The notes beneath the pieces are model-generated. The model was given only the letters and a program-made list of their open reading frames with translations. It did not search any database and was not told the origin of the DNA. Below, piece after piece: positions 3,691 to 22,135 of a stretch of DNA of 64,000 nt. This DNA comes from Myxococcota bacterium (GTDB lineage: Bacteria; Myxococcota_C; UBA6777). Location of the stretch: NCBI GenBank assembly GCA_023150835.1, contig JAKLKB010000041.1, positions 810-64,809 on the forward strand. Reading direction: 5' to 3'. Within the stretch, counting starts at the first letter, position 1. The number at the start of each line of letters is the position of its first letter. Both the position numbers and the translations under genes were made by a program.

Positions 3691-3721
3691 CTTCGCGATG
3701 CCTACAACCTACTCACCGAAC

Positions 3722-5506: not shown

Positions 5507-5671
5507 GTTCTATTCCGGCAGCCACGCCGCCTTTTGCGGCATCAACCAGACTGCCTCTCCTTTCGTTGTGGAGCGTTTTGCGGATCAGCCCATCCAGCCC
5601 CATCGCTGCGACCTTGAGCCATCCACCACCAAACCGCGCTTTTCGTCCGAAAAAGCGCACACATAAACGCG

Positions 5672-5700
5672 AGAGTAGTCTTGTCGGCAATCCCTGTCAA
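5672..5700 (-). promoter_or_regulatory. Putative sigma70 promoter for the kinase-LysM pair
   Basis: Minus strand reads TTGACA-17 nt-TACTCT. Confidence 0.55.
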
Positions 5701-5832
5701 GCCAACCGCTCGCTCGAAACGCGATGACTGCAAAAACGACCGTCTCTTCCGCGCTCCCTGTCAAGCCATCCGCTCGCTCGAAACGCGATGACTGCAAAAA
5801 CGACCGTCTCTTCCGCGCTCCCTGTCAAGCCA
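5691..5832. repeat. 64-bp tandem duplication (2.2 copies) in divergent intergenic region
   Basis: tccctgtcaagcca starts at 5691, 5755 and 5819; the intervening sequence is nearly identical. Confidence 0.92.
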
Positions 5833-5952
5833 ACGGGCCGCCCACACAAGGCACACACCCTCGGACACTTTTAGCAAAGACTTGCGCTTGCGCTTTGCCT
5901 CGGGCATCCTACCCCGTACTCTACGACCGCTGGCCCTCACGGAATCACGGAG

Positions 5953-6903
5953 ATGTCCATGTCCTCTTGTTTTTCCCAAATCCTCCGCTCCATCGCACTC
6001 AGCGCGATCCTTCTACTCCCCTTCGGAACGCTCCGCGCCCAGCAACGCTATGACGCTTATCGTGAGGAAGTCCAAAAACTCTTCCAACAAGGCAAAGAAC
6101 TCGCCGCAAAACGCGATTACAAGCGCAGTCTCGTCAAACTCAAAGCGGCCTTTCGGCTCCTGCGCGATATGGAGGCAGAAGCTCGTACCGACGAACAGAC
6201 CGCCAAGATCAAAAAAAGCCGAATCAGTTTCCTGTATTTTATCGGTCGCGTCCATGAACTCGACGGCAATCTGCGCGATGCTGTCGAGTATTACAGCCGT
6301 TGCATCCAACAAGATCCCAACAGCACCGCCGCACAAGCTGCACAACGCGCTCTCCACGCACTCACCCCCCGCGTTCAAGCCACCCTTCGCATCGAAAGTA
6401 TCCCCTCTCGGGTCTCGCTTCAACTCACCGATCCACGCGGAAACACCTACACCCGCCAAACCCCCACGACCTTTCAACTCCTACCCGGAAAACACAAGAT
6501 TACCCTCCAAAAAAAAGGCTTCACCCCCGAAAAACGCACCCTCGATCTCGACCCCAACGCCGATCAGCGCGTCTCGATCCGCCTTCTGCCCCTCCTCAAA
6601 AAAACCACCCCGCCCACACAACCTCCCCCGCCCACCCGCAACGCATGGGGCATCGTCGGATGGGTCGGCATCGGCATCGGAGCCGCCGCCGTCATCACCG
6701 CGACTTCGTTGTTGGTCGTCGTCAACGGCCAAGTGACCAGTATCGAACAAAAGCTCGGACAGCCCGGCGTTTCCACACTGCAACTCCACAACGACCTCTC
6801 CACCGCCCAAAGCATGGAGATCGGCGCAATCGCTTCCTTTGGTGTCGCCGCTGCCGCTCTTGGACTCGGGATCACTGGACTGATCATCGCCTCCCAAAAA
6901 TAA
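5953..6903 (+). CDS. Secreted/membrane TPR + PEGA domain protein
   Basis: Signal peptide (..LRA-QQ), TPR-like helices (LYFIGRVHELDGNLRDAVEYYSR), PEGA-like IESIP...PGKHKITLQKKGF, hydrophobic C-terminal helices. Confidence 0.85.
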   Translation: MSMSSCFSQILRSIALSAILLLPFGTLRAQQRYDAYREEVQKLFQQGKELAAKRDYKRSLVKLKAAFRLLRDMEAEARTDEQTAKIKKSRISFLYFIGRVHELDGNLRDAVEYYSRCIQQDPNSTAAQAAQRALHALTPRVQATLRIESIPSRVSLQLTDPRGNTYTRQTPTTFQLLPGKHKITLQKKGFTPEKRTLDLDPNADQRVSIRLLPLLKKTTPPTQPPPPTRNAWGIVGWVGIGIGAAAVITATSLLVVVNGQVTSIEQKLGQPGVSTLQLHNDLSTAQSMEIGAIASFGVAAAALGLGITGLIIASQK

Positions 6904-6916
6904 GAAACCAAACATC

Positions 6917-8482
6917 TCAAAAGACTGGACACGACCACACACGAATCGCCTGAGCCGCAGCAGCGGCCAAACGCAAGCTGTCTGCTGACCAAGCCAACCC
7001 AAGCACGTTTTCGGATGCTGTCCCCGATATCCCGCTAAATACGATGTTTTGGCGTGCCCATGTTTTTGTGTCCCACACAAACACGCGGTTGCTTGTCGTC
7101 GAAGCCGCCAACCAAGCACCATTCGGACTAAACGCCACACGACGCACCGTCCCCACACCCTCCAACATCAACGTGCGATCCGTCTCGACATTGTCCAGAT
7201 CTTTCACCACCAACTTGTCTGCACCCATCGCCAACCACCGCCCTTGCGGGTGGATATCCAGCCCCCACACGATCCCCATCTTGTCCTTCACCAACGTGTG
7301 CTTGATCGTGTTGATATCGCCTCCGATCGGCCAACGGAAGACTGCCCCGCTATCCGATCCCGAGTACAGTTCTTTGCGCGTGGAATGATACACCAGCGAG
7401 TAGACTCGGCTCAAATGTCCCTTCAATGAACCGAGATAGCCTCCGTTGTACACACCCCATGCACGGATCACTTCGTCGTCGCCGCCTGTAAAAAGCGTAT
7501 CTTCTTGTCCAAAAATCGCAACCTGTACGTTGCCTTCATGCGCAGTCTTGTTCGGCGTGCTCGGATCGATCAGTTCGCGGATCTCTTTGCCCGTTTCGGC
7601 CTCCCACAACTTGACACGTGCGTTGTAATCTCCCGTTGCAAGGATCTTTTGATCTCGATGTAAAGCCAACGCAGCGATCGGTTGTTGCTGGGATCCACCT
7701 CTCGCGGGATTCATCACAAACAACGGCTTTGCCTCCAAAGATGCACCCCACGCAACGACACCGTCCGTACTCGACGAATACAGCACGCCTTTGAAAGAAA
7801 AAAGCATCTGCAACACCAAAAATCCCCGATGTGCGGCCTCGATACTCTTTAAGTTTCCTTCGCCACCCGGCAAACAACAAGGTTCATCCGTACGACCATT
7901 GCAATTGCTGTCCACGTTGTCATCACAACGCTCCGCTGTGGGCCGCTGATCTCCTTGGCATACCAGCCAACGCCCCGTCTCATGGCAGTTTTGTGTCCCT
8001 TCGACGCAGGCTCCCACCCCCTTCAACGTCGATGGCCCGCTATAACAAGACCGCGTGCTTCCCGCATCGCAAGCCTCTTCGGTTGGATCAAACTCGGGCA
8101 TCGGCTCCGCTTCGGGTACAGGCTCCGCTTCGGGCAATGATTCCCCTGCATCGGCCTGTTCTTCGGTCGATGCGATAATCTCCAAATCCCCTTCTTGCGT
8201 CCCCACAACGCACGTCCCTGATCGACACACCCGACCACTCTGACAATCCGCATCGCGTGCGCACTGCCGACACAACGCACCCACGCAAAAAGGCCGATCC
8301 TTCGAGCAATCCGATTCTTCTTTGCACTCCAAACGCACGCGCCCTGTGCAAGACAACCCCGACCACCACAACAAACCCAACAAGCCTCCACACAGCGCGT
8401 ACCACAAGCTCCTCGAATGCCCTACCCCTCGATACGTCGCCTTTTCTGATCTTTGCCCAGATACCCGCATTCTCAACACCAT
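6917..8482 (-). CDS. Cys-rich lipoprotein with C-terminal WD40 beta-propeller (start uncertain; ORF open to 8698)
   Basis: Lipobox-like GLSC; Cys-rich C-x4-DC modules; DSNCNGRTDE; WD repeats (ATGDYNARVKLWE, TGGDDEVIRAWG, LKGHLSRVYSL, VFVWD). Confidence 0.85.
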   Translation of the reverse strand: MVLRMRVSGQRSEKATYRGVGHSRSLWYALCGGLLGLLWWSGLSCTGRVRLECKEESDCSKDRPFCVGALCRQCARDADCQSGRVCRSGTCVVGTQEGDLEIIASTEEQADAGESLPEAEPVPEAEPMPEFDPTEEACDAGSTRSCYSGPSTLKGVGACVEGTQNCHETGRWLVCQGDQRPTAERCDDNVDSNCNGRTDEPCCLPGGEGNLKSIEAAHRGFLVLQMLFSFKGVLYSSSTDGVVAWGASLEAKPLFVMNPARGGSQQQPIAALALHRDQKILATGDYNARVKLWEAETGKEIRELIDPSTPNKTAHEGNVQVAIFGQEDTLFTGGDDEVIRAWGVYNGGYLGSLKGHLSRVYSLVYHSTRKELYSGSDSGAVFRWPIGGDINTIKHTLVKDKMGIVWGLDIHPQGRWLAMGADKLVVKDLDNVETDRTLMLEGVGTVRRVAFSPNGAWLAASTTSNRVFVWDTKTWARQNIVFSGISGTASENVLGLAWSADSLRLAAAAAQAIRVWSCPVF

Positions 8483-8806
8483 CGGCTCACCCAACATCAC
8501 TTGCAAACACGCCCAAGCAGCCCTCATCGGCTTGCAAATACGCCCAATTAGCCCTTCGCAAGACGAACCTTTCCACGCACCACAAAGCCCCCACCGCTCT
8601 TCTGTGTGTAGCATCCACGCTCGCACACCACAAGCAGAGTCTCCGCAAAAGCATACTCGCAACACTTCGTTACGCTCGCCCCTAACAACGCGACACACTT
8701 GTCACAAATGGATGCCAACACTCGATTTTTTTTCGCGTCCTGTGATACCTTGTCAAGGTCTGTCTCGTGAGGCCTCGCTCTTCACTGACCATGAGGAAAC
8801 CACACC

Positions 8807-11800
8807 ATGCGATATCTTGTTTTCCGTTGGCCGCTTATCGGTCTGTTTCTGCTTGGCAGTCTGCTTGTCTTCGGCGAAGGCTGCGGAACATCTGTCATGA
8901 CCTGCCTCACCGACGAAGAATGCGGAGAAGGCTCCTTTTGCAATGCCAGCGCAGGAAGCTGTCAGAAAGAATGTACCAGCAGCGCCGATTGTCCAACCGA
9001 CAAGACCTGTTTCTTGCGGCGCGGAAAGTGCCTTGGCGGAGACACCTGTGCCAACAAACCCGCCCGTCAAGCCTGCGTCAACGGTCACGTCCACACCATC
9101 GACGGTTGCGAATTTGTGGGCGATCGTCAGGCCGATTGCGGTCTCCAAGGCTGCCTCGATGGCAAGTGCTTACAAGTCCCTGTCGGTTGCGGCGACGGGA
9201 TCTGCGATCCGACGCAAGAACACTGCCTCAACTGCCCCTTCGATTGTGCTTGTCCAAGCGGTGAACTGTGCGACACCACCACCTCCGCTTGCCTGACCTC
9301 CGCCAACTGCGGCGATGGAACCTGCGATCCCAACGAAAAAGAAACTTGCGCCACTTGCCCCATCGATTGCGCCTGCCCCGCAGGTCAGCGCTGTGATCGT
9401 AACCAACAGATCTGCGCCGCCTTTCCAAGCTGTGGCAACGGCTCCTGCGAACCCAACGAATCCGAAGATTGCAGCAACTGCCCCTTCGATTGTGCCTGTC
9501 CTCTCGGACAACGCTGCATCAACAACGCCTGCGCTCCCACCAACCCTTGCGGAGATGGCCAATGCTCCGCACAACAAGGCGAAAACTGCGATACCTGCCC
9601 CAAAGACTGCGCTTGTCCTGCCGATCAGTCCTGTAAAGCCGGCGTCTGCAAGATCGATCAAACCAACACCGTGCGCTGCGGTGACCAAAAGTGCGACAAA
9701 TCCGAGTCTTCCGCTTCTTGTTGTTCCGATTGTGGCTGCCCAAGCGGATACAAGTGCGAAAACAACGCTTGCCAGCCCGCACAAACCGCCCGATGTGGCA
9801 ACGGTCGTTGTGAAGCCAGCGAAAATGCCCAAAACTGCTGTACGGACTGCGGCTGTCCAAGCGGCAACTTTTGCAACAACAACCGCTGTTGCTCTTGTAT
9901 CGCCAACGAAGATCGCCGCTGCAACGGCGCACAGATCCAAGTCTGCAACGCAGACTGCACCGGTTGGACAACCGAACAAAATTGCTCAAGCACCCAGACC
10001 TGCAAAAAAACCACTTCTGGCAACTTGGCCTGCGTCGATATCTGCACAAGCGATTGCACCACCGAAGGACAAAAGCGCTGTAACGGCGGATACGCCATCC
10101 AAACCTGCTCCCGTAGTAGCCAAGGCTGTCTCGTGTGGACCACCACACTTGGCTGCAAAACCAACGAATACTGCGAATCTGGCGCAACGACCTGCAAAAC
10201 CTCTGCTTGCACCAACCATAGCTGCCCCACCCTTGAAGCCACACGCTGCGACGTTCGCACCGTGCAAGAATGCCAAAATGATACAAGTGGTTGCCGTGTC
10301 TGGAAAACCACCAACTATTGCGCCCCCCCGCAAACGTGTTCCGATGGAAAATGTATCTACGACTGCGGCACTTCTCCTTGCAGCCTCGGTGCGCCCTACT
10401 GCTCGAACAACAACGTCGTCCAATGCGAAACCGACTCCAACGGCTGCCGCAAGCTCACCACCAAACAAACCTGTTCAGGCGGAAAGATCTGTAAAAATCC
10501 CACCACAGGCGTGGCTTATTGCGAGTGCAGCCACAAATGCACCACCGAAGGCGAAAAACAATGCAATACCAACATGCCCCAAGAATGTCGTAAAAATGCC
10601 TCGGGCTGCCGCGAATGGGTCAACCTCAACTATTGCGTCCCGCCCTACACCTGCTCCAAAGGGGCCTGTATCTACGGATGTAGCCACACTTGCGAACTCG
10701 GGCCGATCTACTGCTCCAACAACAACGTCTCCCAATGTGAAGCCGATACCAACGGCTGTCGCCGCGTCGTGACGAAACAAGCCTGCGTCGGTGGAAAAGT
10801 CTGCAAAAGCCCCACCACAGGCGTCGCTTATTGTGAGTGCAGCCACAAATGCACCACCGAAGGCGAAAAACAATGCAGCACCAACCAAACCCAAGAGTGC
10901 CGCAAAAACGCCGAAGGCTGCCGTGAATGGGTCAACGGTACGTACTGCACCCCCCCCAATACTTGCTCCAAAGGCGCTTGCGTCTACAACTGCACCCACA
11001 CCTGCGAACTCGGCCCTGTGTATTGCTCGAACGGAAACGTTGTCCAATGCGAGGCCGACAGCAACGGCTGCCGCCGCGTCGTGACGAAACAAACTTGTTC
11101 GGGTGGAAAAGTCTGCAAAAGCCCCACCACAGGCGTGGCTTATTGCGAGTGCAGTCACAAATGCCCGACCGAAGGCGAAAAACAATGCAGCACCAACCAA
11201 ACCCAAGAATGTCGCAAAAACGCCGACGGCTGCCGTGAATGGGTCAATGGCACATACTGCACCCCTCCCAATACTTGTTCAGGCGGCGTATGCGTCTACA
11301 ACTGCAACCACACTTGCAGCCTTGGCCCCATACAATGCTCGAACAACAACGTCGTCCAATGCGAGGCCGACAGCAACGGCTGCCGTCGCATGGTCACCAA
11401 AGACACCTGTGGCTCCCGTCAAACCTGCAAAAGCCCCACCACAGGCGTGGCTTATTGCGAGTGTAGTCACGGATGCTCTAGCGCTGGAGCCAAACAGTGC
11501 AGCACCAATCAAGCCCAAGAATGCAAAACGGACGGCGATGGCTGCCGCTATTGGGCCAATACGACCTACTGCACCCCTCCCAATATCTGCTCAGGCGGAA
11601 ACTGCGTCTACAACTGCAACCACACTTGCAATGCCGGCCCTGTATACTGCTCGAACAACAACGTCGTCCAATGCGAGGCCGACAGCAATGGCTGCCGCCG
11701 CGTGGTCACCAAAGACACCTGCGGCTCCCGTCAAACCTGCAAAAGCCCCACCACAGGCGTGGCTTATTGTGAGTGTAGTCACGGATGCTCTAGCGCTGGA

Positions 11801-12391
11801 GCCAAACAGTGCAGCACCAACCAAACCCAAGAATGTAAAACGGATGGCGATGGCTGCCGTTATTGGGCCAACGGTACCTACTGCACGCCCCCCTATACCT
11901 GTTCGGGCGGAAACTGCGTCTATAGCTGCAACCATACCTGTTCTCCCGCTGGAGCCAAACAATGCAGCACCAACCAAACCCAAGAATGCCGCACCGACGG
12001 CAACGGCTGCCGCTCTTGGGTCAACGGTACCTACTGCACGCCCCCCTATACCTGTTCGGGCGGAAACTGCGTCTATAGCTGCAACCATCAATGCAGCAGC
12101 GGTACAAAGCAGTGCAGCGGAAACACTCCCCAAGAATGCCGCACCGACGGCAACGGCTGTCGTTATTGGGCCAACCTTACGGCGTGCGGAACAGGTTACA
12201 CCTGTTCGGGCGGAAACTGTGTGTCGAGTTGCAATCACGCTTGCTCATACAACGGGCAAAAACAATGCGCAGGTTCGATACCCGCCTACATCCAAGAATG
12301 CAGAACCAACTCAAGCGGATGCCGCTACTGGTACACCACCACCACCTGCCCACCACCCCAGCGCTGCGTCAATCTCGGATGCACCTATTGA
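8807..12391 (+). CDS. Very Cys-rich repetitive lipoprotein (1194 aa)
   Basis: GAGG RBS; signal peptide with GEGC; N-terminal CGDGxC..E.C..CP.DC repeats; C-terminal ~50-aa Cys modules. Confidence 0.9.
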   Translation: MRYLVFRWPLIGLFLLGSLLVFGEGCGTSVMTCLTDEECGEGSFCNASAGSCQKECTSSADCPTDKTCFLRRGKCLGGDTCANKPARQACVNGHVHTIDGCEFVGDRQADCGLQGCLDGKCLQVPVGCGDGICDPTQEHCLNCPFDCACPSGELCDTTTSACLTSANCGDGTCDPNEKETCATCPIDCACPAGQRCDRNQQICAAFPSCGNGSCEPNESEDCSNCPFDCACPLGQRCINNACAPTNPCGDGQCSAQQGENCDTCPKDCACPADQSCKAGVCKIDQTNTVRCGDQKCDKSESSASCCSDCGCPSGYKCENNACQPAQTARCGNGRCEASENAQNCCTDCGCPSGNFCNNNRCCSCIANEDRRCNGAQIQVCNADCTGWTTEQNCSSTQTCKKTTSGNLACVDICTSDCTTEGQKRCNGGYAIQTCSRSSQGCLVWTTTLGCKTNEYCESGATTCKTSACTNHSCPTLEATRCDVRTVQECQNDTSGCRVWKTTNYCAPPQTCSDGKCIYDCGTSPCSLGAPYCSNNNVVQCETDSNGCRKLTTKQTCSGGKICKNPTTGVAYCECSHKCTTEGEKQCNTNMPQECRKNASGCREWVNLNYCVPPYTCSKGACIYGCSHTCELGPIYCSNNNVSQCEADTNGCRRVVTKQACVGGKVCKSPTTGVAYCECSHKCTTEGEKQCSTNQTQECRKNAEGCREWVNGTYCTPPNTCSKGACVYNCTHTCELGPVYCSNGNVVQCEADSNGCRRVVTKQTCSGGKVCKSPTTGVAYCECSHKCPTEGEKQCSTNQTQECRKNADGCREWVNGTYCTPPNTCSGGVCVYNCNHTCSLGPIQCSNNNVVQCEADSNGCRRMVTKDTCGSRQTCKSPTTGVAYCECSHGCSSAGAKQCSTNQAQECKTDGDGCRYWANTTYCTPPNICSGGNCVYNCNHTCNAGPVYCSNNNVVQCEADSNGCRRVVTKDTCGSRQTCKSPTTGVAYCECSHGCSSAGAKQCSTNQTQECKTDGDGCRYWANGTYCTPPYTCSGGNCVYSCNHTCSPAGAKQCSTNQTQECRTDGNGCRSWVNGTYCTPPYTCSGGNCVYSCNHQCSSGTKQCSGNTPQECRTDGNGCRYWANLTACGTGYTCSGGNCVSSCNHACSYNGQKQCAGSIPAYIQECRTNSSGCRYWYTTTTCPPPQRCVNLGCTY
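10380..12240 (+). repeat. Coding tandem repeat with ~312-bp (104-aa) period built from two alternating Cys modules
   Basis: Repeated cccaccacaggcgtggcttattg (PTTGVAYCEC) near 10500, 10811, 11123, 11435 and 11747. Confidence 0.88.
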
Positions 12392-12406: not shown

Positions 12407-12602
12407 GCGGGTGTCCTACTCGGCCTTGTCTTTGCGCTTGGCGGCTCGATCCAGTAGCTCAAGGATATCTTCGGTGATATCCAAGGCGGGATCGAGATAC
12501 AACGGCGGGTGTCCTACTCGGCCTTGTCTTTGCGCTTGGCGGCTCGATCCAGTAGCTCAAGGATATCTTCGGTGATATCCAAGGCGGGATCGAGATACAA
12601 CG
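12407..12602. repeat. Exact 98-bp tandem duplication of the 3' end of the Skp-like gene
   Basis: gcgggtgtcctact...gagatacaacg at 12407-12504 and 12505-12602. Confidence 0.95.
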
Positions 12603-12918
12603 TACGATCTTTGTGCAACACAGCCTTTGCACCGCGCTGGATCGCGATCGTTGAAGCAAAGAAAGCGGCTTTTTCGAGGACTTCGTGACGGAGCAGTTGG
12701 CGCTGTTCTTCGAGTTCTTGCATGACGAGACGCAAAGCCGCTTCGATCTCTTCCAAAGCGGCGGTGTAGAGGGTGCCTTGGAGGGTTGCGATCTCTTGGC
12801 GTCGTTGCTCGGCAGCTTCTTTGTGTTTTTTCCAGCGCTTCTCCAAAGCCTCCGAAGCAAGGCGCGCTGCAAGGCTCTCCCCCAAGATCCTCGATACATC
12901 GACAAACAAGATATCCAT
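12514..12918 (-). CDS. OmpH/Skp-like protein without signal peptide
   Basis: ILFVDVSRIL start, central coiled coil and IAIQRGAKAVL...LYLDPALDITEDILELL end match the Skp pattern. Confidence 0.7.
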   Translation of the reverse strand: MDILFVDVSRILGESLAARLASEALEKRWKKHKEAAEQRRQEIATLQGTLYTAALEEIEAALRLVMQELEEQRQLLRHEVLEKAAFFASTIAIQRGAKAVLHKDRTLYLDPALDITEDILELLDRAAKRKDKAE

Positions 12919-12929
12919 CGCCCTCTCCG

Positions 12930-14636
12930 CTAAAGCTGCCAGATCACCCGCATCTCGCTGTAATACCGTTGATGTTCATCTTCGAGTCCTTGGGTCACAG
13001 CCAACGAACACTGCGCATCAAAGACGATCACATAGATCACTTCTGTGCTGCTTGAAACTTCGGTGGGCAGGCGTTTTTCAAGACGAGCAAAAGCCCGAAA
13101 ACCGGGTTCTAATTTTCCGCGATACACCAAGCGGTCGGTCTTCGGCGCACGTCGTGAAAGCTCGATCGGCTCGCCAAACGGCGTCATCCTCAACGCATGC
13201 AAGCGTTTGTAGCCGACAACTCGATCATTTTTGATGTACACAAAGATCACAGGGAAAAAGATCTGCATCCCTTTGACGATGCCGATCTGTTCGCGAGCTT
13301 CGTGATGACCGAAGATCTTGTAGGTCGACAACGCCGCTTGCATCTCTTTTTGGCGATCTTCGAGCCGCTTGCGTTCGGTGAGCAGTTGGGTGCGTTGCGC
13401 CTCGCCTGTTTGAAGCTGTTGTTTGAGTTGCGTAGCTTGAGCGTCGCTGCGGACTTTGTGGATCTCGTAGCGTTCGACCAAAAGACGCAGGCGCTTTTGA
13501 TCTTCTCGCAGCGCAGCGATCTCTTTGTTGCGTTGTGCGGCAAGGGCTTCTGCTTGAAAACGAGCGCGTTGCGTTTCTTCAAAGCGGCTTTGCAAGGTCT
13601 TTTGTTGCTGTTGTTGCTTTTCTTCTTCACGCTGCGCGACAGAGACCTGTGTGCGAAGCGATTCATTCTGACGCTGAAGCACAGCCACCTGCTCACGCAA
13701 AGCCGCAAGCTCTTGTTGCAAACGTTGCAGCGCCCGCATCGAGGCTTGTTGTGATTTGTCGTGCTGAGACAGCCGATCTTCGAGCAAGATCGACTTGGCA
13801 AGGCGCGCTTCAAGCGCTTTGATCTGCGCTCGCAAACGCACGTTTTCTTGTTCCAATACGCCCTGCGCAAGGGCCATCTTGCGTTGACGATCTTGTTCTT
13901 TGGCTTGTTGGGTGCGTAGCGCTTGGAGTTCGCTTTGTGCGACTTGTAGCGCCGCTTCTTTGCTTGCCAACTGCTCCTTCAAACGCGCCACTTGAACAGC
14001 CATCTCTCGGGCTTCCATGGTCGCGATGCGAAAGCGTGCGTCAGCGGCACGAAGCTGATCTTCAAGGCGTTTGCGTTCTTCATCGGCACGCGAGAGTTTT
14101 GCGGCGAGTGCTCTCGCTTCTTCGCGTTCCTTGCGGTGCATCTCTTCAAGAACGCGATGCTGTTCTTGCAGACGCGCAAGCTGTTGTTTGGTTTGACGGA
14201 GTTCCCGCTCCAACCGAGCGCGCAGACGTTCGAGGCGTTGCTTGTCCTGCCCCAACGCATCGCGCTGCTTTTGCGTCACCTGTAAGTCCCGCTCCATCGC
14301 GTCGATCTTGCTTTGCGTAGCTTCTCGCAAACGTTGCATCTCGGCTTGTTGCGATCGCAAACGCTCCATCGTCTGCTGTAGGCGCGACACCAACACTTGT
14401 AAGCTCCGCATATCCGCATCGATCTGTGTTCGATCTTTGGTGAGGCGACTGGCTTTTTGATGTTGTTGATCGCGCTGTTGGCGCAAAGCACGGATCTGTT
14501 GTTGCGCGCTCGATATCTGCCGCTGGTGCGCCTTTTGGGCCGCGTCGTCTTTTTTTCGCAAGTTGATCGAAAAAGCAAACAGCAAGATCAAGATGATATC
14601 CACCAACGGCAACAAATCGAGTCTGGATCGACGCAT
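12930..14636 (-). CDS. ExbD/TolR-type N-terminal TM fused to ~400-aa coiled coil and C-terminal alpha/beta domain
   Basis: LDLLPLVDIILILLFAF resembles the ExbD TM motif (conserved Asp), followed by a Q/E/R/L-rich heptad region. Confidence 0.8.
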   Translation of the reverse strand: MRRSRLDLLPLVDIILILLFAFSINLRKKDDAAQKAHQRQISSAQQQIRALRQQRDQQHQKASRLTKDRTQIDADMRSLQVLVSRLQQTMERLRSQQAEMQRLREATQSKIDAMERDLQVTQKQRDALGQDKQRLERLRARLERELRQTKQQLARLQEQHRVLEEMHRKEREEARALAAKLSRADEERKRLEDQLRAADARFRIATMEAREMAVQVARLKEQLASKEAALQVAQSELQALRTQQAKEQDRQRKMALAQGVLEQENVRLRAQIKALEARLAKSILLEDRLSQHDKSQQASMRALQRLQQELAALREQVAVLQRQNESLRTQVSVAQREEEKQQQQQKTLQSRFEETQRARFQAEALAAQRNKEIAALREDQKRLRLLVERYEIHKVRSDAQATQLKQQLQTGEAQRTQLLTERKRLEDRQKEMQAALSTYKIFGHHEAREQIGIVKGMQIFFPVIFVYIKNDRVVGYKRLHALRMTPFGEPIELSRRAPKTDRLVYRGKLEPGFRAFARLEKRLPTEVSSSTEVIYVIVFDAQCSLAVTQGLEDEHQRYYSEMRVIWQL

Positions 14637-14638
14637 GG

Positions 14639-15424
14639 TTATCCTCTCGATCCGCTCGATGCATCGGGCGATACAGCAGGCGTCGTTTCGCTCGATGGCT
14701 TCGACGATACAGAGGACGTCGTTTCGCTCGATGGCTTCGACGATACAGAGGACGTCGTTTCGCTCGATGGCTTCGGCGATACAGCAGGCGTCGTTTCGAC
14801 CGATGGCTTCGGCGATACAGCGGACGTGACTTTGCTCGGTGGCTTCGGCGATACAGCAGATATCAAAGGAACAGGATCAGCGTCTTCGTCGGTAGCATGG
14901 GGTCGTGTGATCACATGAACCAACCGCGACACCACCTCACGATTTTGAAGGAGTTCCAAGACGTTATAAAACGATTCTTCGGCGGGGTTTTCGATCCACC
15001 AACGACCGAACAACGCTCCGATCAAGCCCATAATCGTGGTGTTCAGCGCAAACCCCAGCGTTCGTGTATCGAAGTCAAAAAATAGCGCGGCCAGCAGCAA
15101 ACTGACGACTGTTCCGAGCAGACCGATCTGCGGCATCATCTCGATATACGCAGCCACCCGTTGTCGGGCGGATTGCGCACTTGCACGCCAACGCGAGATC
15201 ATATCGTGACGAGAGAGCGCATCACTGGCCTTCCAACCGCTTGCTTGCAGATAGGCCAAGGGCTCAAGATACGCTTCTTCGGGCGCTTTTTGATAACTGC
15301 GACGCAAGATCTCTTCTTGTTCTCGCAGTTCGCGTCGGATACCCCGAGCCTTCAAAAACAAGAAGCCGATCCACAGCAACCAAAACACACTCAACACGAC
15401 GGTGACAAAGTCTTCGACCCACAT
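14639..15424 (-). CDS. MotA/TolQ/ExbB proton-channel family protein with repetitive C-terminal tail
   Basis: PQIGLLGTV and ALNTTIMGL motifs; three TM helices. Confidence 0.88.
   Translation of the reverse strand: MWVEDFVTVVLSVFWLLWIGFLFLKARGIRRELREQEEILRRSYQKAPEEAYLEPLAYLQASGWKASDALSRHDMISRWRASAQSARQRVAAYIEMMPQIGLLGTVVSLLLAALFFDFDTRTLGFALNTTIMGLIGALFGRWWIENPAEESFYNVLELLQNREVVSRLVHVITRPHATDEDADPVPLISAVSPKPPSKVTSAVSPKPSVETTPAVSPKPSSETTSSVSSKPSSETTSSVSSKPSSETTPAVSPDASSGSRG
14653..14858 (-). repeat. 36-bp coding tandem repeat (12 aa, AVSPKPSSETTP-like), ~6 copies
   Basis: cgatacag(c/a)..gtcgtttcgctcgatggctt recurs every 36 bp. Confidence 0.85.
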
Positions 15425-15487
15425 CCGAACGCGCCCTTTCTATTGCTCGCACCTCGCCCATTCCCCAAGCACCACCTATCGAACGCC

Positions 15488-16018
15488 TTAAAATTCGTTG
15501 GCGACACTAAACGGAATGTTTTTTTGGGAGAGCGCTCGTTTGACATCCTGTACCCATTGGGCCTTGGCATCGCCCTGAACGCGCAACACCAGATCGCGAT
15601 CTTCGCGCTGCGCCTTTTCTCCCGCCTCCACCAACTGCGCCACCGTCAATGTTTCTGTTTCGATCTGCCCTTGCGCGGACACTTTGTGGATCGAACGGCT
15701 GCGCAACAGCACTTCGTAGCGAAGGCGTACACGCACCACAGGAGGCGTGGGAGTTGCCGCTTTTGCGCTTGTCCCGCCTTGGGGCGATGCCACCGAAGCG
15801 CCCGTCCCACCTTGCTTTGAGGCTCCTGACGATCCAGTCGATGCGGTCTGATCTTGGCGAACGTCGAGCGCGGGAGATCGGCGATCTGAAACAGAGGACA
15901 TCTGCTGCGGATGTGTGGGCTTTTTCGGAGAAAACACCATCGTAAAATAACCGCCCACACCAACCACCAGCACCGAGATCCCACCGACCAACGTCGTCAT
16001 CATCTTACTATCCGCCAT
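15488..16018 (-). CDS. Membrane-anchored protein with ExbD-like periplasmic domain
   Basis: N-terminal TM without Asp, disordered linker, LVLRVQGDAKAQWVQDVKRALSQKNI like the ExbD C-terminus; immediately upstream of the ExbB-like gene. Confidence 0.6.
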   Translation of the reverse strand: MADSKMMTTLVGGISVLVVGVGGYFTMVFSPKKPTHPQQMSSVSDRRSPALDVRQDQTASTGSSGASKQGGTGASVASPQGGTSAKAATPTPPVVRVRLRYEVLLRSRSIHKVSAQGQIETETLTVAQLVEAGEKAQREDRDLVLRVQGDAKAQWVQDVKRALSQKNIPFSVANEF

Positions 16019-16091
16019 CGCCTACTCCTCTCTCTCAAAACGCGCCTCTCTTGTGTATCGGGCGCGTGCCTTTGTTGGATCCGTTCTGTGG

Positions 16092-17534
16092 CTACTTGGT
16101 TGGCGTAAAAAGGTCGTTCATAAACGCCGTCAACAGGCGCTCCGTCAAGGCGGAAGGCATGGCGTCGAGCACTTCGTTCACTTCGGCCAGACGTTCGGGG
16201 AGTCCGGCTTTTTGAATGCCCGCCATCCCAAGCATCCCTTGTAAGACTTCTTCGGTGATCTGATCGGGTGTGATCTGACCGAACATCTCTTTGACTTGGG
16301 CCACAAGTTCGCTTTCGGGTTGCTGTTTGGCAAGCTCTACGGCTGCGGCGAGATCCACAAGGAAGCCGTCGGCTTGCCCCCGATGCGAAGGACTCACCAA
16401 GAGATGCAAACAAGCGCGGTGGCCTTGATAACCGAGCTGGGGCTGCACGTACCAGCCTTTGAACTTCATCTCGTCGATGACATGGAAGATATTGACGGTG
16501 CGCGAGTCAACCGCGATCAACGGCATCTGCGGGATCACGGGCAGACAAAGATCCGGGATCGCTTGGATCCCTTGCACCAGTTTTTTCTGTTCCTCCAAGA
16601 TCTCCCGAGCATAACGCATATAACCATCGTCACCGATAAAGTTCATCACAGCCCATGCTGCCGCCATCGGTCCCCCAGACTTGGAGCTTTGCACCGCCGT
16701 ATTGACGATGGTGTAGCCCGTCCACGAAGCGCACGCAAAGATCTGATACTTGCGCAAAGATTTGTTGCGGTGCAAGACCACGGATGCGCCTTTGGGAGCA
16801 AAAGCATATTTGTGCAGATCCATCGATATCGACGTCACACCGGGGATACGGAAGTCAAACAACGGGATCTCTTCGCCAAGACGCCGATAATACTGCAACA
16901 AGAAGCCACCGATACAGCCGTCGACATGAAACAACAGATCGTGTTCTTGTGCGATCTTGGCGATCTCTTCGATGGGATCGACGACTCCCCATGCGTAGCA
17001 AGTGGCCGAAGCCACGATCAACGCAGTACGTGGCGTGATCGCAGCGCGGATGGCCTCCACCTCTGCGCGCTTGGTGTCTCGATCGATCGGGGTTTGGACG
17101 ATCTTGACACCGAGATAATGGGCAGCTTTGTAAAAAGCCGCGTGGGCCGAGATCGGCAAGATCATCTCGGGCTGTCCGACCTCGGGGTGCAGATCGAAAA
17201 AGCGGTCACGGGCGGTCTTGAGCGCCAACAGGATGCTTTCTGTTCCTCCGCTCGTAAAGTTGCCCACCACCTCTTGGTCGCCGTGTAGATGGTCCCGCGC
17301 CATCGAGATGATCTGATTTTCCAAGATCGCAAGGCTCGGAAAAGAAGTCGGATCAAGGCCATTTTCGGACAGGTACATCATAAAGGCTTTTTTGGCGACC
17401 TCTTCGACTTCGCGGCCAGCATCATACACATAGCCCCATGCGCGGCCTTCTCGCCACTTGAGATCGTGTTGACGAAAAGACTCTAACTGGGCGAATAATT
17501 CTTCTTGCGAACGAGCGTGCTGTGGGATCTTCAT
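16092..17534 (-). CDS. PLP-dependent group II decarboxylase family, sphingosine-1-phosphate lyase-like
   Basis: TSGGTESILLA, SAHAAFYKAAHY, HVDGCIGGF, DFRIPGVTSISMDLHKY (PLP Lys), APKGASV. Confidence 0.88.
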   Translation of the reverse strand: MKIPQHARSQEELFAQLESFRQHDLKWREGRAWGYVYDAGREVEEVAKKAFMMYLSENGLDPTSFPSLAILENQIISMARDHLHGDQEVVGNFTSGGTESILLALKTARDRFFDLHPEVGQPEMILPISAHAAFYKAAHYLGVKIVQTPIDRDTKRAEVEAIRAAITPRTALIVASATCYAWGVVDPIEEIAKIAQEHDLLFHVDGCIGGFLLQYYRRLGEEIPLFDFRIPGVTSISMDLHKYAFAPKGASVVLHRNKSLRKYQIFACASWTGYTIVNTAVQSSKSGGPMAAAWAVMNFIGDDGYMRYAREILEEQKKLVQGIQAIPDLCLPVIPQMPLIAVDSRTVNIFHVIDEMKFKGWYVQPQLGYQGHRACLHLLVSPSHRGQADGFLVDLAAAVELAKQQPESELVAQVKEMFGQITPDQITEEVLQGMLGMAGIQKAGLPERLAEVNEVLDAMPSALTERLLTAFMNDLFTPTK

Positions 17535-17573
17535 CAAAAGCCTCGCGTGAAAAGGTAGATGGATTTGAGTGGA

Positions 17574-18800
17574 TTAGAGTACAAAGACTTGGATCTGTTC
17601 GTTGATCTCGTCGATGCGGTCGCTGAGCGTTTGGGTGATGCGCAACAACAGCTTGATCCCGAGTGAGGGTTCTTCGTGAAGCAGCTTCAAGAAGGGTTCG
17701 CGATCGATCACCACAAGGCGCGAGGCTTCGACGGCACGCACACTTGCGGAGCGGGGCTTTTTGCTCAAAAGCGCCATCTCTCCGACGTGATCGCCTTGGT
17801 TCAAGATCGCGATCTCGACTTCTCCGCGTGTCACCACCAGTTGCCCTTCGAGGGTGATGTACATGCAGTCGCTATCGCTGCCTTGTTCGATCAAAAGATC
17901 CCCCGCCTCGCAATGTTCGATGCGTGCGAGGCTCATCACTTTCATACGCTCGGAAAGATCAAGATCTTGGAACAGAGGAACTTGTTTGATGATCTGGAGG
18001 CGAAGTGTCACTTCTTCGCCCCATGCTTGGGCTTCTCCGCTGACTTGCTCCGCGACGCGCAAAAGCACCGTTGTGATATTGTCCGAACCATCGCGCAAAC
18101 GGGCCAGATGGATCATCTCACCCGCGATCCCTTCGAGGGTAGCACGACTCATCAGATCGTTCAGTTCATTTGGTTCAAACACCGATCCGCTTAGACCATC
18201 CGAGCAAAGCAAGTACGTATCACCCGGCATCAGATCAAAGATCAAACCATCCACGCGCACTTCGCGTTGCAAGCCGATGGCGCGTGTGAGGATATTGGAG
18301 CGCGGATCGGTCATGGCTTTTTCTGGACTGAGAACCCCCGAAAAGACAAGCTCTGCAACCAAAGTGTGATCGTTGGTCAGCTTAAACACGCGATCTTGGC
18401 GACGAACATACAGGCGACTATCGCCGACGTGTCCGACGGCTGCGACGTTATCGGCCACGACCATAAAGGTCAACGTCGTCCCCATCCGCGCACAAGCAGG
18501 ATGGGCTTGGCCGTGATCGAACACCACCTGACAAGCCTTCGCCACCGCATTGCGCACCAAAACCGTCAATTGTTCCCGATCTGCGGGACTTCCCGTAAAT
18601 CCCTTCAAGAACGCTTTTGACTCACGCAACACTTGTTGTACTGTTTCAGCTGCCATCTGCGAAGCCACTTCGCCAGCGGCGTGTCCTCCCATCCCATCGC
18701 ACACAAGATACAAGCCCAAATCTTCATCGACGATGTAATAATCTTCGTTGTGTTCTCGCACCAAACCCACATCGCTTTTGCCCAAGGATAGGACTTGCAT
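17574..18800 (-). CDS. PP2C/PPM Ser/Thr phosphatase fused to a cNMP-binding domain
   Basis: SDVGLVREHNED, CDGMGGH, GTT, HVGDSR, LCSDGL, DNIT; cNMP cassette GEMALLSKKPRSASV; GAAGGAG RBS before ATG 18800. Confidence 0.93.
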   Translation of the reverse strand: MQVLSLGKSDVGLVREHNEDYYIVDEDLGLYLVCDGMGGHAAGEVASQMAAETVQQVLRESKAFLKGFTGSPADREQLTVLVRNAVAKACQVVFDHGQAHPACARMGTTLTFMVVADNVAAVGHVGDSRLYVRRQDRVFKLTNDHTLVAELVFSGVLSPEKAMTDPRSNILTRAIGLQREVRVDGLIFDLMPGDTYLLCSDGLSGSVFEPNELNDLMSRATLEGIAGEMIHLARLRDGSDNITTVLLRVAEQVSGEAQAWGEEVTLRLQIIKQVPLFQDLDLSERMKVMSLARIEHCEAGDLLIEQGSDSDCMYITLEGQLVVTRGEVEIAILNQGDHVGEMALLSKKPRSASVRAVEASRLVVIDREPFLKLLHEEPSLGIKLLLRITQTLSDRIDEINEQIQVFVL

Positions 18801-18958
18801 CGCTCTCGCTCCTTCGTGCCTTTTGCCAAGTTGTACCGCCTCGAAAACTTTATCGCCGCCTAGCCTAGCCGATCTGGGAACGAGCATCAAGAACGCTGTG
18901 CGCAAACAAAACCTACCGATATGGGTCATCTCTCGCTCGGAAAGGGCTTACGCAGTAG

Positions 18959-19135: not shown

Positions 19136-22135
19136 TTAGGGGGCGAGGCAGCGGGCTTTGTAGGTCACGGTGATGGTGGAGCCGACTTGGGGGGTCGAAG
19201 AGATAGAGAAAGAGATGCTGTTGGCGTTGGCGTTGAAGGTCCATCCTGACGCGCCTTGTGCAACGGTTTGGCCATCCACCTTGACTTGGAGGGTGGCAGG
19301 ATCAGCGGGACGTGACAAGAAAAATTCGCTGCGCAGACCAAAGGTGACAGCCCCGAGTTGGTTGAGGGTATTGGCCCAGTTTTGGTCACAGATCGAGGCT
19401 TGCACCCCCTTCATCAAAGAGGCGATCTCCCAATAACGCGGAGCGGCCTTGACTTTGGTTCCCGAGGGGGGAGTACAGCCATCGGGCATCTGCCCAACGA
19501 CCGACGAGGCGCGCACATCGTCTCCACGAATTCCTTTGAGGGATCGGAAAAAATTAACATAGAACTGGACCGCTTCGGGCGAAGAGTCTGTCTCATCGGA
19601 CACATAGATGATCGACAGAGCGGCTTCGCTGCGATAAAAACCCTTGTTGCATCCGCCGAGTCGGTCGGGTTGAAGCGCATAATACGAGGCGGTCAAGCCT
19701 TGTTCGGTCCCTGAACCTTGCAGACCGACTTTGACGTTATCTGCAAATTTTTGCGGTCCGTTGGGGGTTTGTGGAGTGACAACGGTCGGTGTTCCGCGAA
19801 AACAACCTGTGGCAGGGATGGCAGGGCGGCTGTCGCGTTTGCAAAGCCCGTCGCTTCCGAGTTTGTACTTGCTACCGGGGACGCCACAATCTGCATCGGT
19901 TGTGGTGACGGCGATGTGATAGTCGACTTGGAGACGTGAGGCCCATTGGAAGAAAGAGGAAAGGTTGGCGGAGAGGTTGTTTTGGTTGTCGAGCATCGAG
20001 TTGGAGTCGTCGATCACAAAAAGGATATCGACTTTGGGAGTGCCGATCTGCTTGAAGGTATCGGTCTGTTCGTCGGTATCAACCCCGCGTGCGCTGAGCG
20101 GCACGATATAAGGGGACTGCCCGGGGGCGGAGTTGATCACTTCAAGAGTCCGTTGATCGGGGCCCAAAGCGCTCGGAACATAGGCCAGTTTCACGGTGGC
20201 GCTTTGCCCGTACAACAACGTCAGCGGAAGGTTGGGGGCTTGGCGCAAACGGAACTCTGTATCGTTGGTCTTTCCGTCGATTTGGAGCGCCGAGACGGTG
20301 AGAGGATCTTGGCAGGTATTGAGGATCTCCAGAGCGTAATCCAAGCCTCGGCAGCCTTGTTGTGTCGCGCCCATATCCAAGGGGGAAGGCAAGACTTCGA
20401 TGCAAGCTTTGCCACTTGCACCGAGCAAGTTGACGTTCAATTGGGGGTTGACTTTGTCGCTAGAGAGCAAGGCCAAGGTGCCTTGGCTTTGTGCGGCCCC
20501 GCGAGGCGTGTACGAAAGATCCAGAACCAGCCGTTGTGCGGGTGGGATCACTTCGCCTTGGGGGTTGAGTGTGGTTTGGATCGAAAAGACTTGCGACGGA
20601 TTGACGGTGAGGTTGGCTTGAAACAACGTGCAATCTTCGTAGCCGATGTTTTCGATTTGGACCTTGCCTGCGCGAGAAGCGCCTGTTGGGACGAAACCAA
20701 AGTTTAAGGTCGAAGGGATGGCGCGAAGCTCACAAGGGCTGCTTGACGCATTGCGCGAAAGCAAGGGGATCTCCATCACAGGCCGCAGCGGATCATCGGT
20801 CTCAAGCAACAGCTTTCCTTGATCGGCGTTATCGTCGGCTTTGGTGAAGCGGATCTTGAGGGTCAAGATCTTGCTTGGCGCGAGGGTGGCGGGAGTAGAG
20901 GGAGGTTCCACAAAGTCGAACTCGCGGCTGGTGGTGGCCGAAAACGAGGCTTTTTTGAGCGTGCAGTCTTTGTTGCCTTGGTTGCTCAGGGTGAGGGTCT
21001 TTTCTTCGCTGCGTAGAAAAAGAAGCTGCGTTGGCAAGGCACTAAGGATACACCCCGAGGGTTGAACTTCGAGCGCGACGATGGCCTTGGGTGTGTCGGG
21101 GTCGTTGCTTTCGACTTCCACGGCCCCCCCTGCGGGCTTGGGTTCAACGGCGTTGTAAGTGACGGTGATCTCTTGTGTGTTGGCGGGGGCAAGCGTCAAA
21201 GGCAGCGTCGGTAGGCTGTCTAGGCCAAACTCTTTGGGGGTGCTTGCCGAAAGCTTGATCGCCGAGACCAACAAGGGCTGAGCTCCTGCGTTTCGGATCA
21301 CAAAGGTGCGTTTTCCTTGGCTTCCTGCGGGGACATCATCAAAGAGCAAACGCACAGGCTCAAGCAAAATGCGCGGCGCATCGCGTTCTCCGACCACCCG
21401 CACCACAAGAGGCTGTGTGCTTGCGTCGTGAACAAAAGACAGGGCAGCTTCGGATTGGTGGCCTTTTGGAGTATAAGAGACATCGATCTTGGCGGACTCA
21501 CCGGGTTTAAGCAATGCAGGATACGTCAGAGCCTTGACGATCGCAAAAGCGGCTTCGGCGTTGCCTTCCCATGCCCCCGAACGCACCTGAACGTCGGCTT
21601 GTCCTTGGTTGGTCAGGGTCAAGGTCAGGGTCTTGCTGGTGTTTGGGGCGAATTTGCCAAAGTCAAGCGGATTTGGACTGGCTTGCAACACACCGCTGAC
21701 GAGACTCGAACGGATCGGTACACGTGTATCCCCCGTGTCTGCGACGTTTCGGCCCGTGTGGACGATGCTCAAATAGCCACTCGCTACTCCCGCAACTTTG
21801 GGCGTATAACGGATCTTGACACGCAGGCTCTGTTGGGGTTCTAACGCACGCGGTAGCCCCAAAGCTTCGACCCCCACAAGAGAAAAAGCCTCTCCTTGTT
21901 CGAGCGGTTTTAAGGTTAGGCTGCTCAAAGACAAAGCCACCTGCCCGATATTGCGTAACAACACTTCACGATCGCTGCTTTGCCCGATCGGAAGAGCCGG
22001 AAAGATCACGTTTTCGGGTTGTACCTCCAGTTCGGCATACGTCCCCGTCCCTGTGTTGTCGCACTCGCAAGCCGCCAATCCCATCGAAAACAACAGCACC
22101 AAACAAACACCCACCATCCACACACGTTGCCGCAT
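19136..22135 (-). CDS. Lipoprotein with ~6 ASH/choice-of-anchor-D Ig-like repeats and C-terminal vWA domain
   Basis: Lipobox LAAC; repeats of P..L.FG...LxNxG; vWA MIDAS-like VDILFVIDDSNSM, IAVTTTD, IIYVSDETD. Confidence 0.88.
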   Translation of the reverse strand: MRQRVWMVGVCLVLLFSMGLAACECDNTGTGTYAELEVQPENVIFPALPIGQSSDREVLLRNIGQVALSLSSLTLKPLEQGEAFSLVGVEALGLPRALEPQQSLRVKIRYTPKVAGVASGYLSIVHTGRNVADTGDTRVPIRSSLVSGVLQASPNPLDFGKFAPNTSKTLTLTLTNQGQADVQVRSGAWEGNAEAAFAIVKALTYPALLKPGESAKIDVSYTPKGHQSEAALSFVHDASTQPLVVRVVGERDAPRILLEPVRLLFDDVPAGSQGKRTFVIRNAGAQPLLVSAIKLSASTPKEFGLDSLPTLPLTLAPANTQEITVTYNAVEPKPAGGAVEVESNDPDTPKAIVALEVQPSGCILSALPTQLLFLRSEEKTLTLSNQGNKDCTLKKASFSATTSREFDFVEPPSTPATLAPSKILTLKIRFTKADDNADQGKLLLETDDPLRPVMEIPLLSRNASSSPCELRAIPSTLNFGFVPTGASRAGKVQIENIGYEDCTLFQANLTVNPSQVFSIQTTLNPQGEVIPPAQRLVLDLSYTPRGAAQSQGTLALLSSDKVNPQLNVNLLGASGKACIEVLPSPLDMGATQQGCRGLDYALEILNTCQDPLTVSALQIDGKTNDTEFRLRQAPNLPLTLLYGQSATVKLAYVPSALGPDQRTLEVINSAPGQSPYIVPLSARGVDTDEQTDTFKQIGTPKVDILFVIDDSNSMLDNQNNLSANLSSFFQWASRLQVDYHIAVTTTDADCGVPGSKYKLGSDGLCKRDSRPAIPATGCFRGTPTVVTPQTPNGPQKFADNVKVGLQGSGTEQGLTASYYALQPDRLGGCNKGFYRSEAALSIIYVSDETDSSPEAVQFYVNFFRSLKGIRGDDVRASSVVGQMPDGCTPPSGTKVKAAPRYWEIASLMKGVQASICDQNWANTLNQLGAVTFGLRSEFFLSRPADPATLQVKVDGQTVAQGASGWTFNANANSISFSISSTPQVGSTITVTYKARCLAP

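Follow-up and report, generated by a model that had tools for sequence, protein, structure and literature searches.

The window analyzed here is a 64,000-nucleotide stretch of DNA from an uncultured Myxococcota bacterium (assembly GCA_023150835.1, contig JAKLKB010000041.1, positions 810 to 64,809 of the forward strand), and the element of interest is a cluster of four co-oriented open reading frames (ORFs) on its minus strand at 12514-16018. In the order of transcription, the ORFs encode an anchor protein of 176 residues (15488-16018), a MotA/ExbB/TolQ-like channel protein of 261 residues that is referred to as A (14639-15424), a B subunit of 568 residues (12930-14636), and a leaderless Skp/OmpH-like protein of 134 residues (12514-12918). 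The genes are separated by 63, 2, and 11 bp, as had already been recorded in a sequence-only reading of the window, and a purine-rich stretch is found 5′ of each of the four starts. A promoter scan gave no sigma-70-like sites, which is uninformative for the host lineage. Pfam reports no TonB, TolA, or OmpA domain in the four proteins at E ≤ 1, which agrees with the earlier reading; “no TonB” is valid only at the level of domain homology, however, because the layout of the anchor looks like that of TonB.

The A subunit is composed of a core (residues 1-185, 14870-15424), which represents the minimal three-helix channel part, and a low-complexity tail rich in Ser, Pro, and Thr (14639-14869). The tail is a Ser/Pro/Lys/Thr/Glu repeat whose length in relatives ranges from none to ~470 residues (P0008, 656 residues in total). 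According to hydropathy and the AlphaFold2 model, A takes on the architecture of solved A subunits, with helix 1, a cytoplasmic helical part, and a helix 2-3 hairpin. The PxxGLLGTV and ALxTT motifs that had been pointed out for the channel subunit are indeed present as MPQIGLLGTV and ALNTT. G101, G104, T105, A126, and T130 are invariant in all 29 aligned relatives; the two pore threonines, T105 in helix 2 (GLLGT) and T130 in helix 3 (ALxTT), are aligned with T164 and T197, which do not vary in the canonical ExbB/TolQ set. The core of 185 residues is considerably smaller than the single-domain ExbB/TolQ proteins of the same genome, which comprise 236-284 residues.

Profile comparison places A within the MotA/ExbB/TolQ superfamily. 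An hhalign comparison of the 29-sequence A family with six canonical ExbB/TolQ proteins from its own genome yields a probability of 98.0% (E 1.9e-13, 156 columns), and the six closest A sequences by themselves still reach 95.5% (E 1.4e-8). The AlphaFold2 model of A has a predicted local distance difference test score (pLDDT) of 85.3, and the first 11 Foldseek ranks are taken by MotA, TolQ, and PomA chains (E 5e-3 to 2e-2). In VIA-align, the model superposes on ExbB, TolQ, and ZorA with Z 9.0-9.5 over 163-178 of the 185 residues. The fold evidence is consistent but not decisive alone, because every Foldseek E-value is above 1e-3 and designed helical bundles reach Z 10.7 with the same model. Among Protein Data Bank (PDB) sequences, only MotA (6ykm) is matched, at an E-value of 0.19 that is too weak alone. 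A complex prediction of four A chains with two copies of B(1-50), made without controls, scored 0.21 against a mark of 0.32 and speaks neither for nor against docking; a 4:2 set differs from the natural assembly. Taken together, these results make A a genuine, albeit very divergent and markedly shortened, representative of the superfamily.

The B gene begins 2 bp behind that of A, which corresponds to the usual exbB-exbD order. Its N-terminus (residues 1-24, 14565-14636) reads MRRSRLDLLPLVDIILILL and consists of a basic tail (MRRSR) followed by an ExbD/TolR-like membrane helix that harbors Asp13; the helix motif LLPLVDIILILL given in the earlier reading is present in B. Across six B sequences, whose distant pairs share 25-30% identity, S4, L8, and Asp13 are invariant, and the six carriers of Asp13 include the distant metagenome contig L041. 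Residues 1-24 are matched by hhalign to the ExbD helix of the same genome (18 columns, E 3.8e-4). Both the invariance of Asp13 and the helix match bear out the claim that B keeps the ExbD/TolR transmembrane helix with its essential Asp. That the helix is a cleaved signal peptide is unlikely, given the invariant Asp, the absence of a small-x-small site, and the R-K-K that follows the helix.

The helix is the only N-terminal hydrophobic segment of B and is followed by a putative coiled-coil stalk (~residues 25-433, 13338-14564), which is assigned from composition and heptad score. Its 409 residues contain no Pro and 3 Gly, are rich in Q, R, A, L, and E with a net charge of +25, and take up long runs in a single heptad frame according to a home-made score that is not calibrated. 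The coils of the six B proteins comprise 409, 409, 409, 491, 169, and 112 residues; a variation from 112 to 491 residues, more than fourfold, argues against the stalk as a fixed ruler. The stalk ends in a conserved C-terminal domain of ~135 residues (~residues 434-568, 12933-13337) that closes with VIWQL. In an alignment of five sequences, 49 of its 139 columns are invariant and the mean column identity is 76%. The long stretch described as a coiled coil in the sequence-only reading is present, but it does not take the place of a compact domain; the conserved domain behind it had been missed. The domain has no counterpart in Pfam, its PDB profile search returns chance rows only (E 2), and its best score in the ESM Atlas is 0.83, to unnamed clusters. 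An AlphaFold2 model built from the five sequences predicts mixed strands and helices and is poor (pLDDT 50.7); a Foldseek search with this model gives only meaningless matches at E > 1. Word-based searches, which cover near-length proteins only, retrieve P0001 alone with full-length B (82% identity), additionally P0007 with the end domain, and five proteins with A.

The anchor protein starts with a Gly-rich membrane helix (~residues 10-28) that contains neither Asp nor His. A disordered linker of ~65 residues (S/G/T/P/Q) connects the helix to a conserved C-terminal domain of ~80 residues that ends with FSVANEF in the alignment of five orthologues. A transducer layout, with a helix, a linker, and an end domain beside motor genes, is thus displayed by the anchor and also by B. 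In this layout the anchor resembles TonB and TolA, but the corresponding motif and domain tests failed: an SHLS/His motif is absent from the anchor helices, and no TonB_C or TolA family is matched at E ≤ 1. The PDB profile search of the anchor gives chance matches only (E 0.3).

Anchor, A, and B are inherited together. The host assembly (7.56 Mb, 93% complete) belongs to a GTDB phylum of six species genomes only; the hosts are uncultured sludge bacteria, and relatives are labeled as Myxococcota, Myxococcales, or Deltaproteobacteria metagenome-assembled genomes. A, the B end domain, and the anchor each occur in one copy in the same five of the six phylum genomes, and the sixth (G004, 94% complete) has none of the three. 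Since the query alignments were built from the same genomes, what is informative is that each occurs only once, that all are absent together, and that they are adjacent. The anchor-A-B order and the direct adjacency of the genes are found in 4/4 other genomes having A, and a scan of genome contigs returned these four known relative genomes only. The genes that flank the module differ between the two genera concerned (g1 and g2), and only anchor, A, and B are common to both, which identifies the three genes as the unit. In one of the relatives (G003), the A gene (L017, 7800-8680) appears in two pieces owing to interrupting N/X bases and is no split gene.

The same gene order is found outside the phylum genomes on the metagenome contig L041, which was detected in a scan with the distant subgroup of the A family, with gaps of 9 and 1 bp. 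L041 encodes an anchor of 153 residues with a Pro-rich (Pro/Ala/Glu) linker, an A protein of 181 residues, and a B protein of 271 residues that comprises the Asp helix, a coil of ~112 residues, and an end domain. Its A protein is one of the remote members of the family (25% identical in the 29-sequence alignment), and its end domains match those of the window family in a colinear but weak manner (E 0.018 and 0.0015). A first scan of metagenome contigs had given no match, and a second candidate, L042, proved to be false, as the match lies inside a 445-residue protein without similar neighboring genes. On L041, a 148-residue Gly/Ala-rich membrane protein precedes the module (363-809), and behind it (2929-7140) follow a GreA/GreB-like protein, a dNK/thymidylate-kinase-like P-loop protein (both by Pfam), and then a 559-residue protein; the window has none of these in common with L041. 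That the genes are neighbors by chance is rejected, since their order is kept in L041 and in two genera whose surrounding genes differ. The conserved unit is three genes, not four, so that co-occurrence of the operon genes elsewhere holds for anchor, A, and B and is limited to one genus for the Skp-like gene. The A family itself is extremely rare. Its six-member profile retrieves 29 proteins at E ≤ 1e-3 from 1.84 billion representatives, 11 of them at E ≤ 1e-30, and gene context covers five of these 29.

The fourth gene is an accessory of one genus and stands outside the conserved core. Its protein matches Pfam OmpH (PF03938) with 47.2 bits over profile positions 2-141 of 141 (cut-off 32.4), which confirms the Skp-like identity proposed earlier; its membership in a conserved set is not confirmed. 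With the window query, the gene is found after B in three of the six genomes, all of them of genus g1, and it is absent from genus g2 and from L041. The protein lacks a signal peptide, as it has neither a hydrophobic segment nor an in-frame start upstream. Two more OmpH/Skp genes are present in the genome (L043 and L044), their leaders end with AHA, and the operon-encoded protein begins exactly at the mature start of these leader-bearing paralogues. Genes for skp are usually flanked by outer-membrane assembly genes; the fourth gene, despite its full-length OmpH match, differs from them in its location, its missing signal peptide, and its restriction to one genus. For a Skp-like protein, a cytoplasmic location would by itself be unusual. 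At its 3′ end, a perfect tandem duplication of 98 bp (12407-12504 and 12505-12602, 100% identical) contains the stop codon and the last 29 codons of the gene, which leaves a 29-codon copy just downstream. The duplication may be a recent event or an assembly artefact. Contigs from RNA libraries break around it.

With a confidence a little better than even, the three-gene module of anchor, A, and B is read as a divergent Ton/Tol-type ion-driven motor whose axle, B, carries its own stalk. A would assemble as a pentamer that encloses two B helices, and ions passing a site made of Asp13, T105, and T130 would turn A relative to B. The N-terminus of B would be cytoplasmic, and the two chains would therefore leave the membrane on the periplasmic side, where they would continue as a parallel coiled-coil stalk. 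Calculated with ~0.15 nm per residue, this stalk may reach ~17 to 73 nm across species, and it would keep the conserved C-terminal domain far from the membrane. B would hence unite a TolR-type helix and a TolA-like reach in one protein. The anchor may act as a second tethered partner that is located outside the A ring or meets the B end domain, and force or rotation would be passed to a partner located in the outer membrane, in the cell wall, or at the cell surface. The Skp-like protein of this genus would be an additional component and might serve as a holdase that binds the long B chain in the cytoplasm until its export.

A number of results weigh against this stalk-bearing motor. Besides the limits of the fold evidence named above, A scores 18.0 bits (E 0.0026) on Pfam MotA_ExbB (PF01618) and does not reach the cut-off of 22.9 bits, and seven close relatives stay below it as well (15.3-21.1 bits), always with a match over the same profile region. 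A scan of the whole genome with PF01618 finds 11 other places, and the A gene is not among them. The majority of the more remote A-family members (~180 residues) and the A protein of L041 do pass the cut-off with 23.0-71.4 bits, and the A-family profile reaches such PF01618-passing proteins, for example P0033 (71.4 bits), P0030 (43.0 bits), and P0032 (42.5 bits). The earlier assignment of A as an ExbB/MotA channel is accordingly supported by profile methods and not by the Pfam cut-off, and because of its scores below the cut-off the family is missed by routine annotation. For B, the match to the ExbD helix spans 18 columns with a probability of 36% only; no Pfam, NCBIfam, or PADLOC family is assigned beyond SMC, JetC, and LmuB coiled-coil noise, and the end domain shows no likeness to ExbD in hhalign (probability 6%, in the wrong region). 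PF02472 (ExbD/TolR) matches neither B nor the anchor at E ≤ 1, and its 11 places in a whole-genome scan (E ≤ 0.01) lie outside the operon.

The anchor adds further points of this kind. It has no Pfam, NCBIfam, or PADLOC family, and its comparison with the ExbD of its own genome by hhalign gives a probability of 0.2%. In the ESM Atlas all of its scores are 0.83 or lower, the 0.81-0.82 of ExbD/TolR clusters being at chance level. The ExbD-like globular domain that had been attributed to the anchor is thus unsupported, and the likeness, noted by eye as a pattern, is no more than a lead. No mutual similarity between the anchor and the B end domain is detected by hhalign. The length of the B stalk is not conserved among relatives, and a stalk of 60 nm exceeds the usual width of the periplasm, as the predicted stalk in this genome would. 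Pfam scans of the conserved module reveal no outer-membrane partner, peptidoglycan-binding domain, or TonB box.

Part of this evidence would suit a structure without ion flow, in which A is a degenerate relic that serves as membrane dock for a structural coiled-coil envelope spacer or scaffold. The score of A below the Pfam cut-off, its much reduced cytoplasmic part (a core of 185 residues compared to 236-284), and the lack of a known output partner speak for it. The residues that bear the ion in known motors, however, never vary (29/29 for T105 and T130, 6/6 for Asp13) across sequences that are 18-30% identical, and such a relic is considered very improbable.

The charges that flank the membrane helices give a divided picture of the topology. 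In A, acidic residues prevail in the N-terminal flank and basic ones behind helix 1, which fits the topology of ExbB. In the B protein of L041, two Lys/Arg residues precede the helix, and no Lys/Arg and four Asp/Glu residues follow it, as expected for an N-in, C-out orientation; its coil is net negative (8 Lys/Arg versus 19 Asp/Glu). Among the five related genomes, 3-5 Lys/Arg are present in the flank behind the B helix compared to 2-3 in the N-terminal tail, and the net charge of the coil is +25 to +69. The C-terminal flank of the anchor is always more basic than the N-terminal flank and holds up to six Lys/Arg. The basic B flank and coil, the anchor flank, and the missing leader of the Skp-like protein would be equally compatible with domains in the cytoplasm and, to that extent, count against a periplasmic stalk.

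These features could be explained by an inward-facing machine, in which the B coil, the anchor end domain, the A tail, and the Skp-like protein are all cytoplasmic and the coil serves as a ZorA-like lever or sensor that is placed on B. In addition to the charges, the absence of a signal peptide from the Skp-like protein, which both paralogues possess, and the ZorA chains found at Z 9.1-9.8 in VIA-align would agree with such a machine. It is opposed by the ExbB-type flanking charges of A and by the acidic flank and negative coil of L041 B. In solved motors, the B-type helix is not known to enter the ring other than N-in, and a tail of five residues with three Arg/Lys is unlikely to be exported. 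Neither Zorya nor any other system is matched in PADLOC, no nuclease or helicase family occurs among 12 neighboring proteins scanned, relatives on plasmids or phages were not found, and neither genus g2 nor L041 has the Skp-like gene. Because homologues rarely differ in topology and the short, triply basic tail is poorly exportable, cytoplasmic domains are weighed below the canonical topology, and an inward-facing machine is judged decidedly unlikely.

Compared to the Ton and Tol systems, the likeness of the module lies in all three genes: A is homologous to ExbB/TolQ and has the three helices and both pore threonines, B has a TolR/ExbD-type Asp helix and follows directly after A, and the third gene encodes a helix-linker-domain protein as TonB and TolA are. 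TolA domains II and III consist of a long helical part and a small end domain, which the long basic helical part and the small end domain of B resemble. The differences are the A core of only 185 residues that stays below the Pfam cut-off, the long helical reach that is located on the Asp-bearing B instead of a separate TolA, and a module without a detectable ExbD, TonB_C, or TolA domain and with an anchor helix that lacks the His motif. Furthermore, no Pal, TolB, or receptor gene is linked to the module among the 12 neighbors.

Given these likenesses, the module might be an ordinary Ton-like system with the anchor as TonB-like transducer and B as an ExbD with a helical spacer, whose end domain sits near the anchor linker; its output would be import via an outer-membrane transporter or tethering of the outer membrane. 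The order tonB-exbB-exbD is common and equals that of anchor, A, and B, and in the anchor, a helix is followed by a linker that is disordered or rich in Pro and then by a small end domain, with a Pro/Ala/Glu run in the L041 linker as in TonB. PMC12204202 counts three-part proteins beside motor genes as candidate transducers. On the other side, the anchor helix is devoid of a His/SHLS-type motif and the anchor of a TonB_C or TolA match, no TonB-dependent receptor family is found in the 12 neighboring proteins, and no gene besides anchor, A, and B is common to both genera. The genome already contains 11 canonical ExbB and 11 ExbD matches elsewhere, and the basic C-terminal flank of the anchor favors a cytoplasmic C-terminus. 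An ordinary Ton-like system is, on this evidence, quite unlikely.

Long shafts are known from other motors of this superfamily. GldLM/PorLM is a 5:2-type motor in which GldM/PorM forms a long periplasmic shaft with globular domains that extends towards the outer membrane. B is similar, by functional analogy, in being a putative B-type subunit with a long predicted shaft, and differs in that this shaft would be a coiled coil, that of GldM being made of globular domains. GldL and GldM families are not matched by any operon protein (Pfam, NCBIfam), and no type IX secretion system family is reported in the 12 neighbors. In Zorya, ZorA carries a long coiled-coil tail on the A subunit, and this tail is cytoplasmic. 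Zorya and the module would share, again by functional analogy, a MotAB-like motor with a very long coil; the coil is on B here, and the A tail is disordered and of low complexity. In PADLOC, the anchor, A, and the Skp-like protein match no family, and B gives nothing beyond JetC/LmuB coiled-coil noise. Peptidoglycan-binding domains are absent from the operon proteins (Pfam) and ZorC/D/E-like effectors from the scanned neighbors. A role in defense, which the sequence-only reading had listed as a possibility, is rejected: PADLOC yields no real match, plasmid or phage relatives were not found, and the 12 neighbors contain no defense-effector family of Pfam.

The analogy to Zorya can be carried further to a new class of 5:2 motors, in which the axle would be a basic coiled-coil shaft of 17-73 nm that is tipped by a domain of new fold and represents the B counterpart of the ZorA tail. 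In species with long stalks, such a shaft would be longer than the periplasm and would have to bend back on itself, run along the wall, penetrate the outer membrane, or point into the cytoplasm. A cytoplasmic shaft would go against all precedent, and the leaderless Skp-like protein would meet the shaft there. A class of this kind seems unlikely.

The closest described idea is TPH-vWA, which joins a TolR-like helix with its Asp to a vWA domain and pairs with a TolQ-like gene (PMC12204202). The helix is predicted inside the TolQ-like pentamer, which would make the axle itself the transducer, and the genes occur mostly in heterologous pairs in Proteobacteria and Verrucomicrobia (PMC12204202). TPH-vWA and B have in common that a B-type helix is fused directly to an output domain. 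They differ in the output, which is a vWA domain there and a coil of 112-491 residues with a ~135-residue domain here, and in the gene set, which here consists of one B and an Asp-less anchor in a small Myxococcota-labeled lineage. With TPH-vWA and GldM/PorM as precedents, a long periplasmic part on B, such as the putative envelope-spanning shaft of the sequence-only reading, is no new principle. PMC12505986 classifies non-flagellar motor relatives, and the word “coiled” does not appear in its available text. In full-text literature searches, no paper turned up in which ExbD, TolR, or MotB is combined with a coiled coil that is long or periplasmic; the supplements of PMC12204202 may list related architectures. 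The set matches no described system in PADLOC and in these searches.

Upstream of the operon, all on the minus strand, lie genes for a pyridoxal phosphate-dependent decarboxylase (16092-17537), a PP2C phosphatase fused to a cyclic nucleotide monophosphate (cNMP)-binding domain (17574-18929), a 999-residue protein of ASH/HYDIN-type Ig-like domains (19136-22135), and two adjoining proteins with two cNMP-binding domains each (22752-24071 and 24181-25515). The decarboxylase and PP2C genes are located upstream of the module in G001 and G002 too, and not in genus g2. On the other side, a convergent plus-strand gene (8807-12391) encodes a Cys-rich protein of 1194 residues with many similar modules (CxxxxC-rich, with a repeated GVAYCECSH...C), the sole Pfam row of which is a chance-like match of 30.7 bits. 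It is preceded by a minus-strand gene (6917-8698) for a 593-residue protein with a Cys-rich N-terminal part and WD40 repeats.

DNA of the window is found in 20 listed runs of eight studies that are mostly labeled as activated sludge or wastewater; six of the 20 run rows are possibly the source of the assembly of the window itself. Contigs of RNA libraries from one sample (X10, X11, and X14) and from a second study (X17) cover the operon, mostly with at least 99% identity. Record 3 of X10 (12801-14710) and record 20 of X14 span the Skp-like/B and B/A junctions, and record 15 of X11 (14792-17830) spans the A/anchor and anchor/decarboxylase junctions. This coverage is a weak hint that the operon is expressed, since neighboring genes are similarly covered, the contigs are strandless, and DNA is possible in RNA libraries. 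In all four runs, the contigs end at 14710 and restart at 14792, in the region of the A tail.

The observation of an unusual motor operon is thus largely real and more than chance, and a motor is a supported reading of A and a plausible one of B. Flagella, the import of nutrients, the upkeep of the envelope, gliding, type IX secretion, and defense against phages all draw their power from ion-driven 5:2 motors, and each new coupling of the 5:2 core to an output has taught mechanism. The module is plausibly a further coupling of this known core. With a core pared to ~185 residues and an axle that has its own stalk and end domain, it would provide a compact natural test of the axle as force transducer, a role recently put forward on the basis of predictions for TPH-vWA (PMC12204202). 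If a shaft-bearing class of its own, which is unlikely as stated above, should nevertheless be true, it would be an undescribed way to take work from an ion motor.

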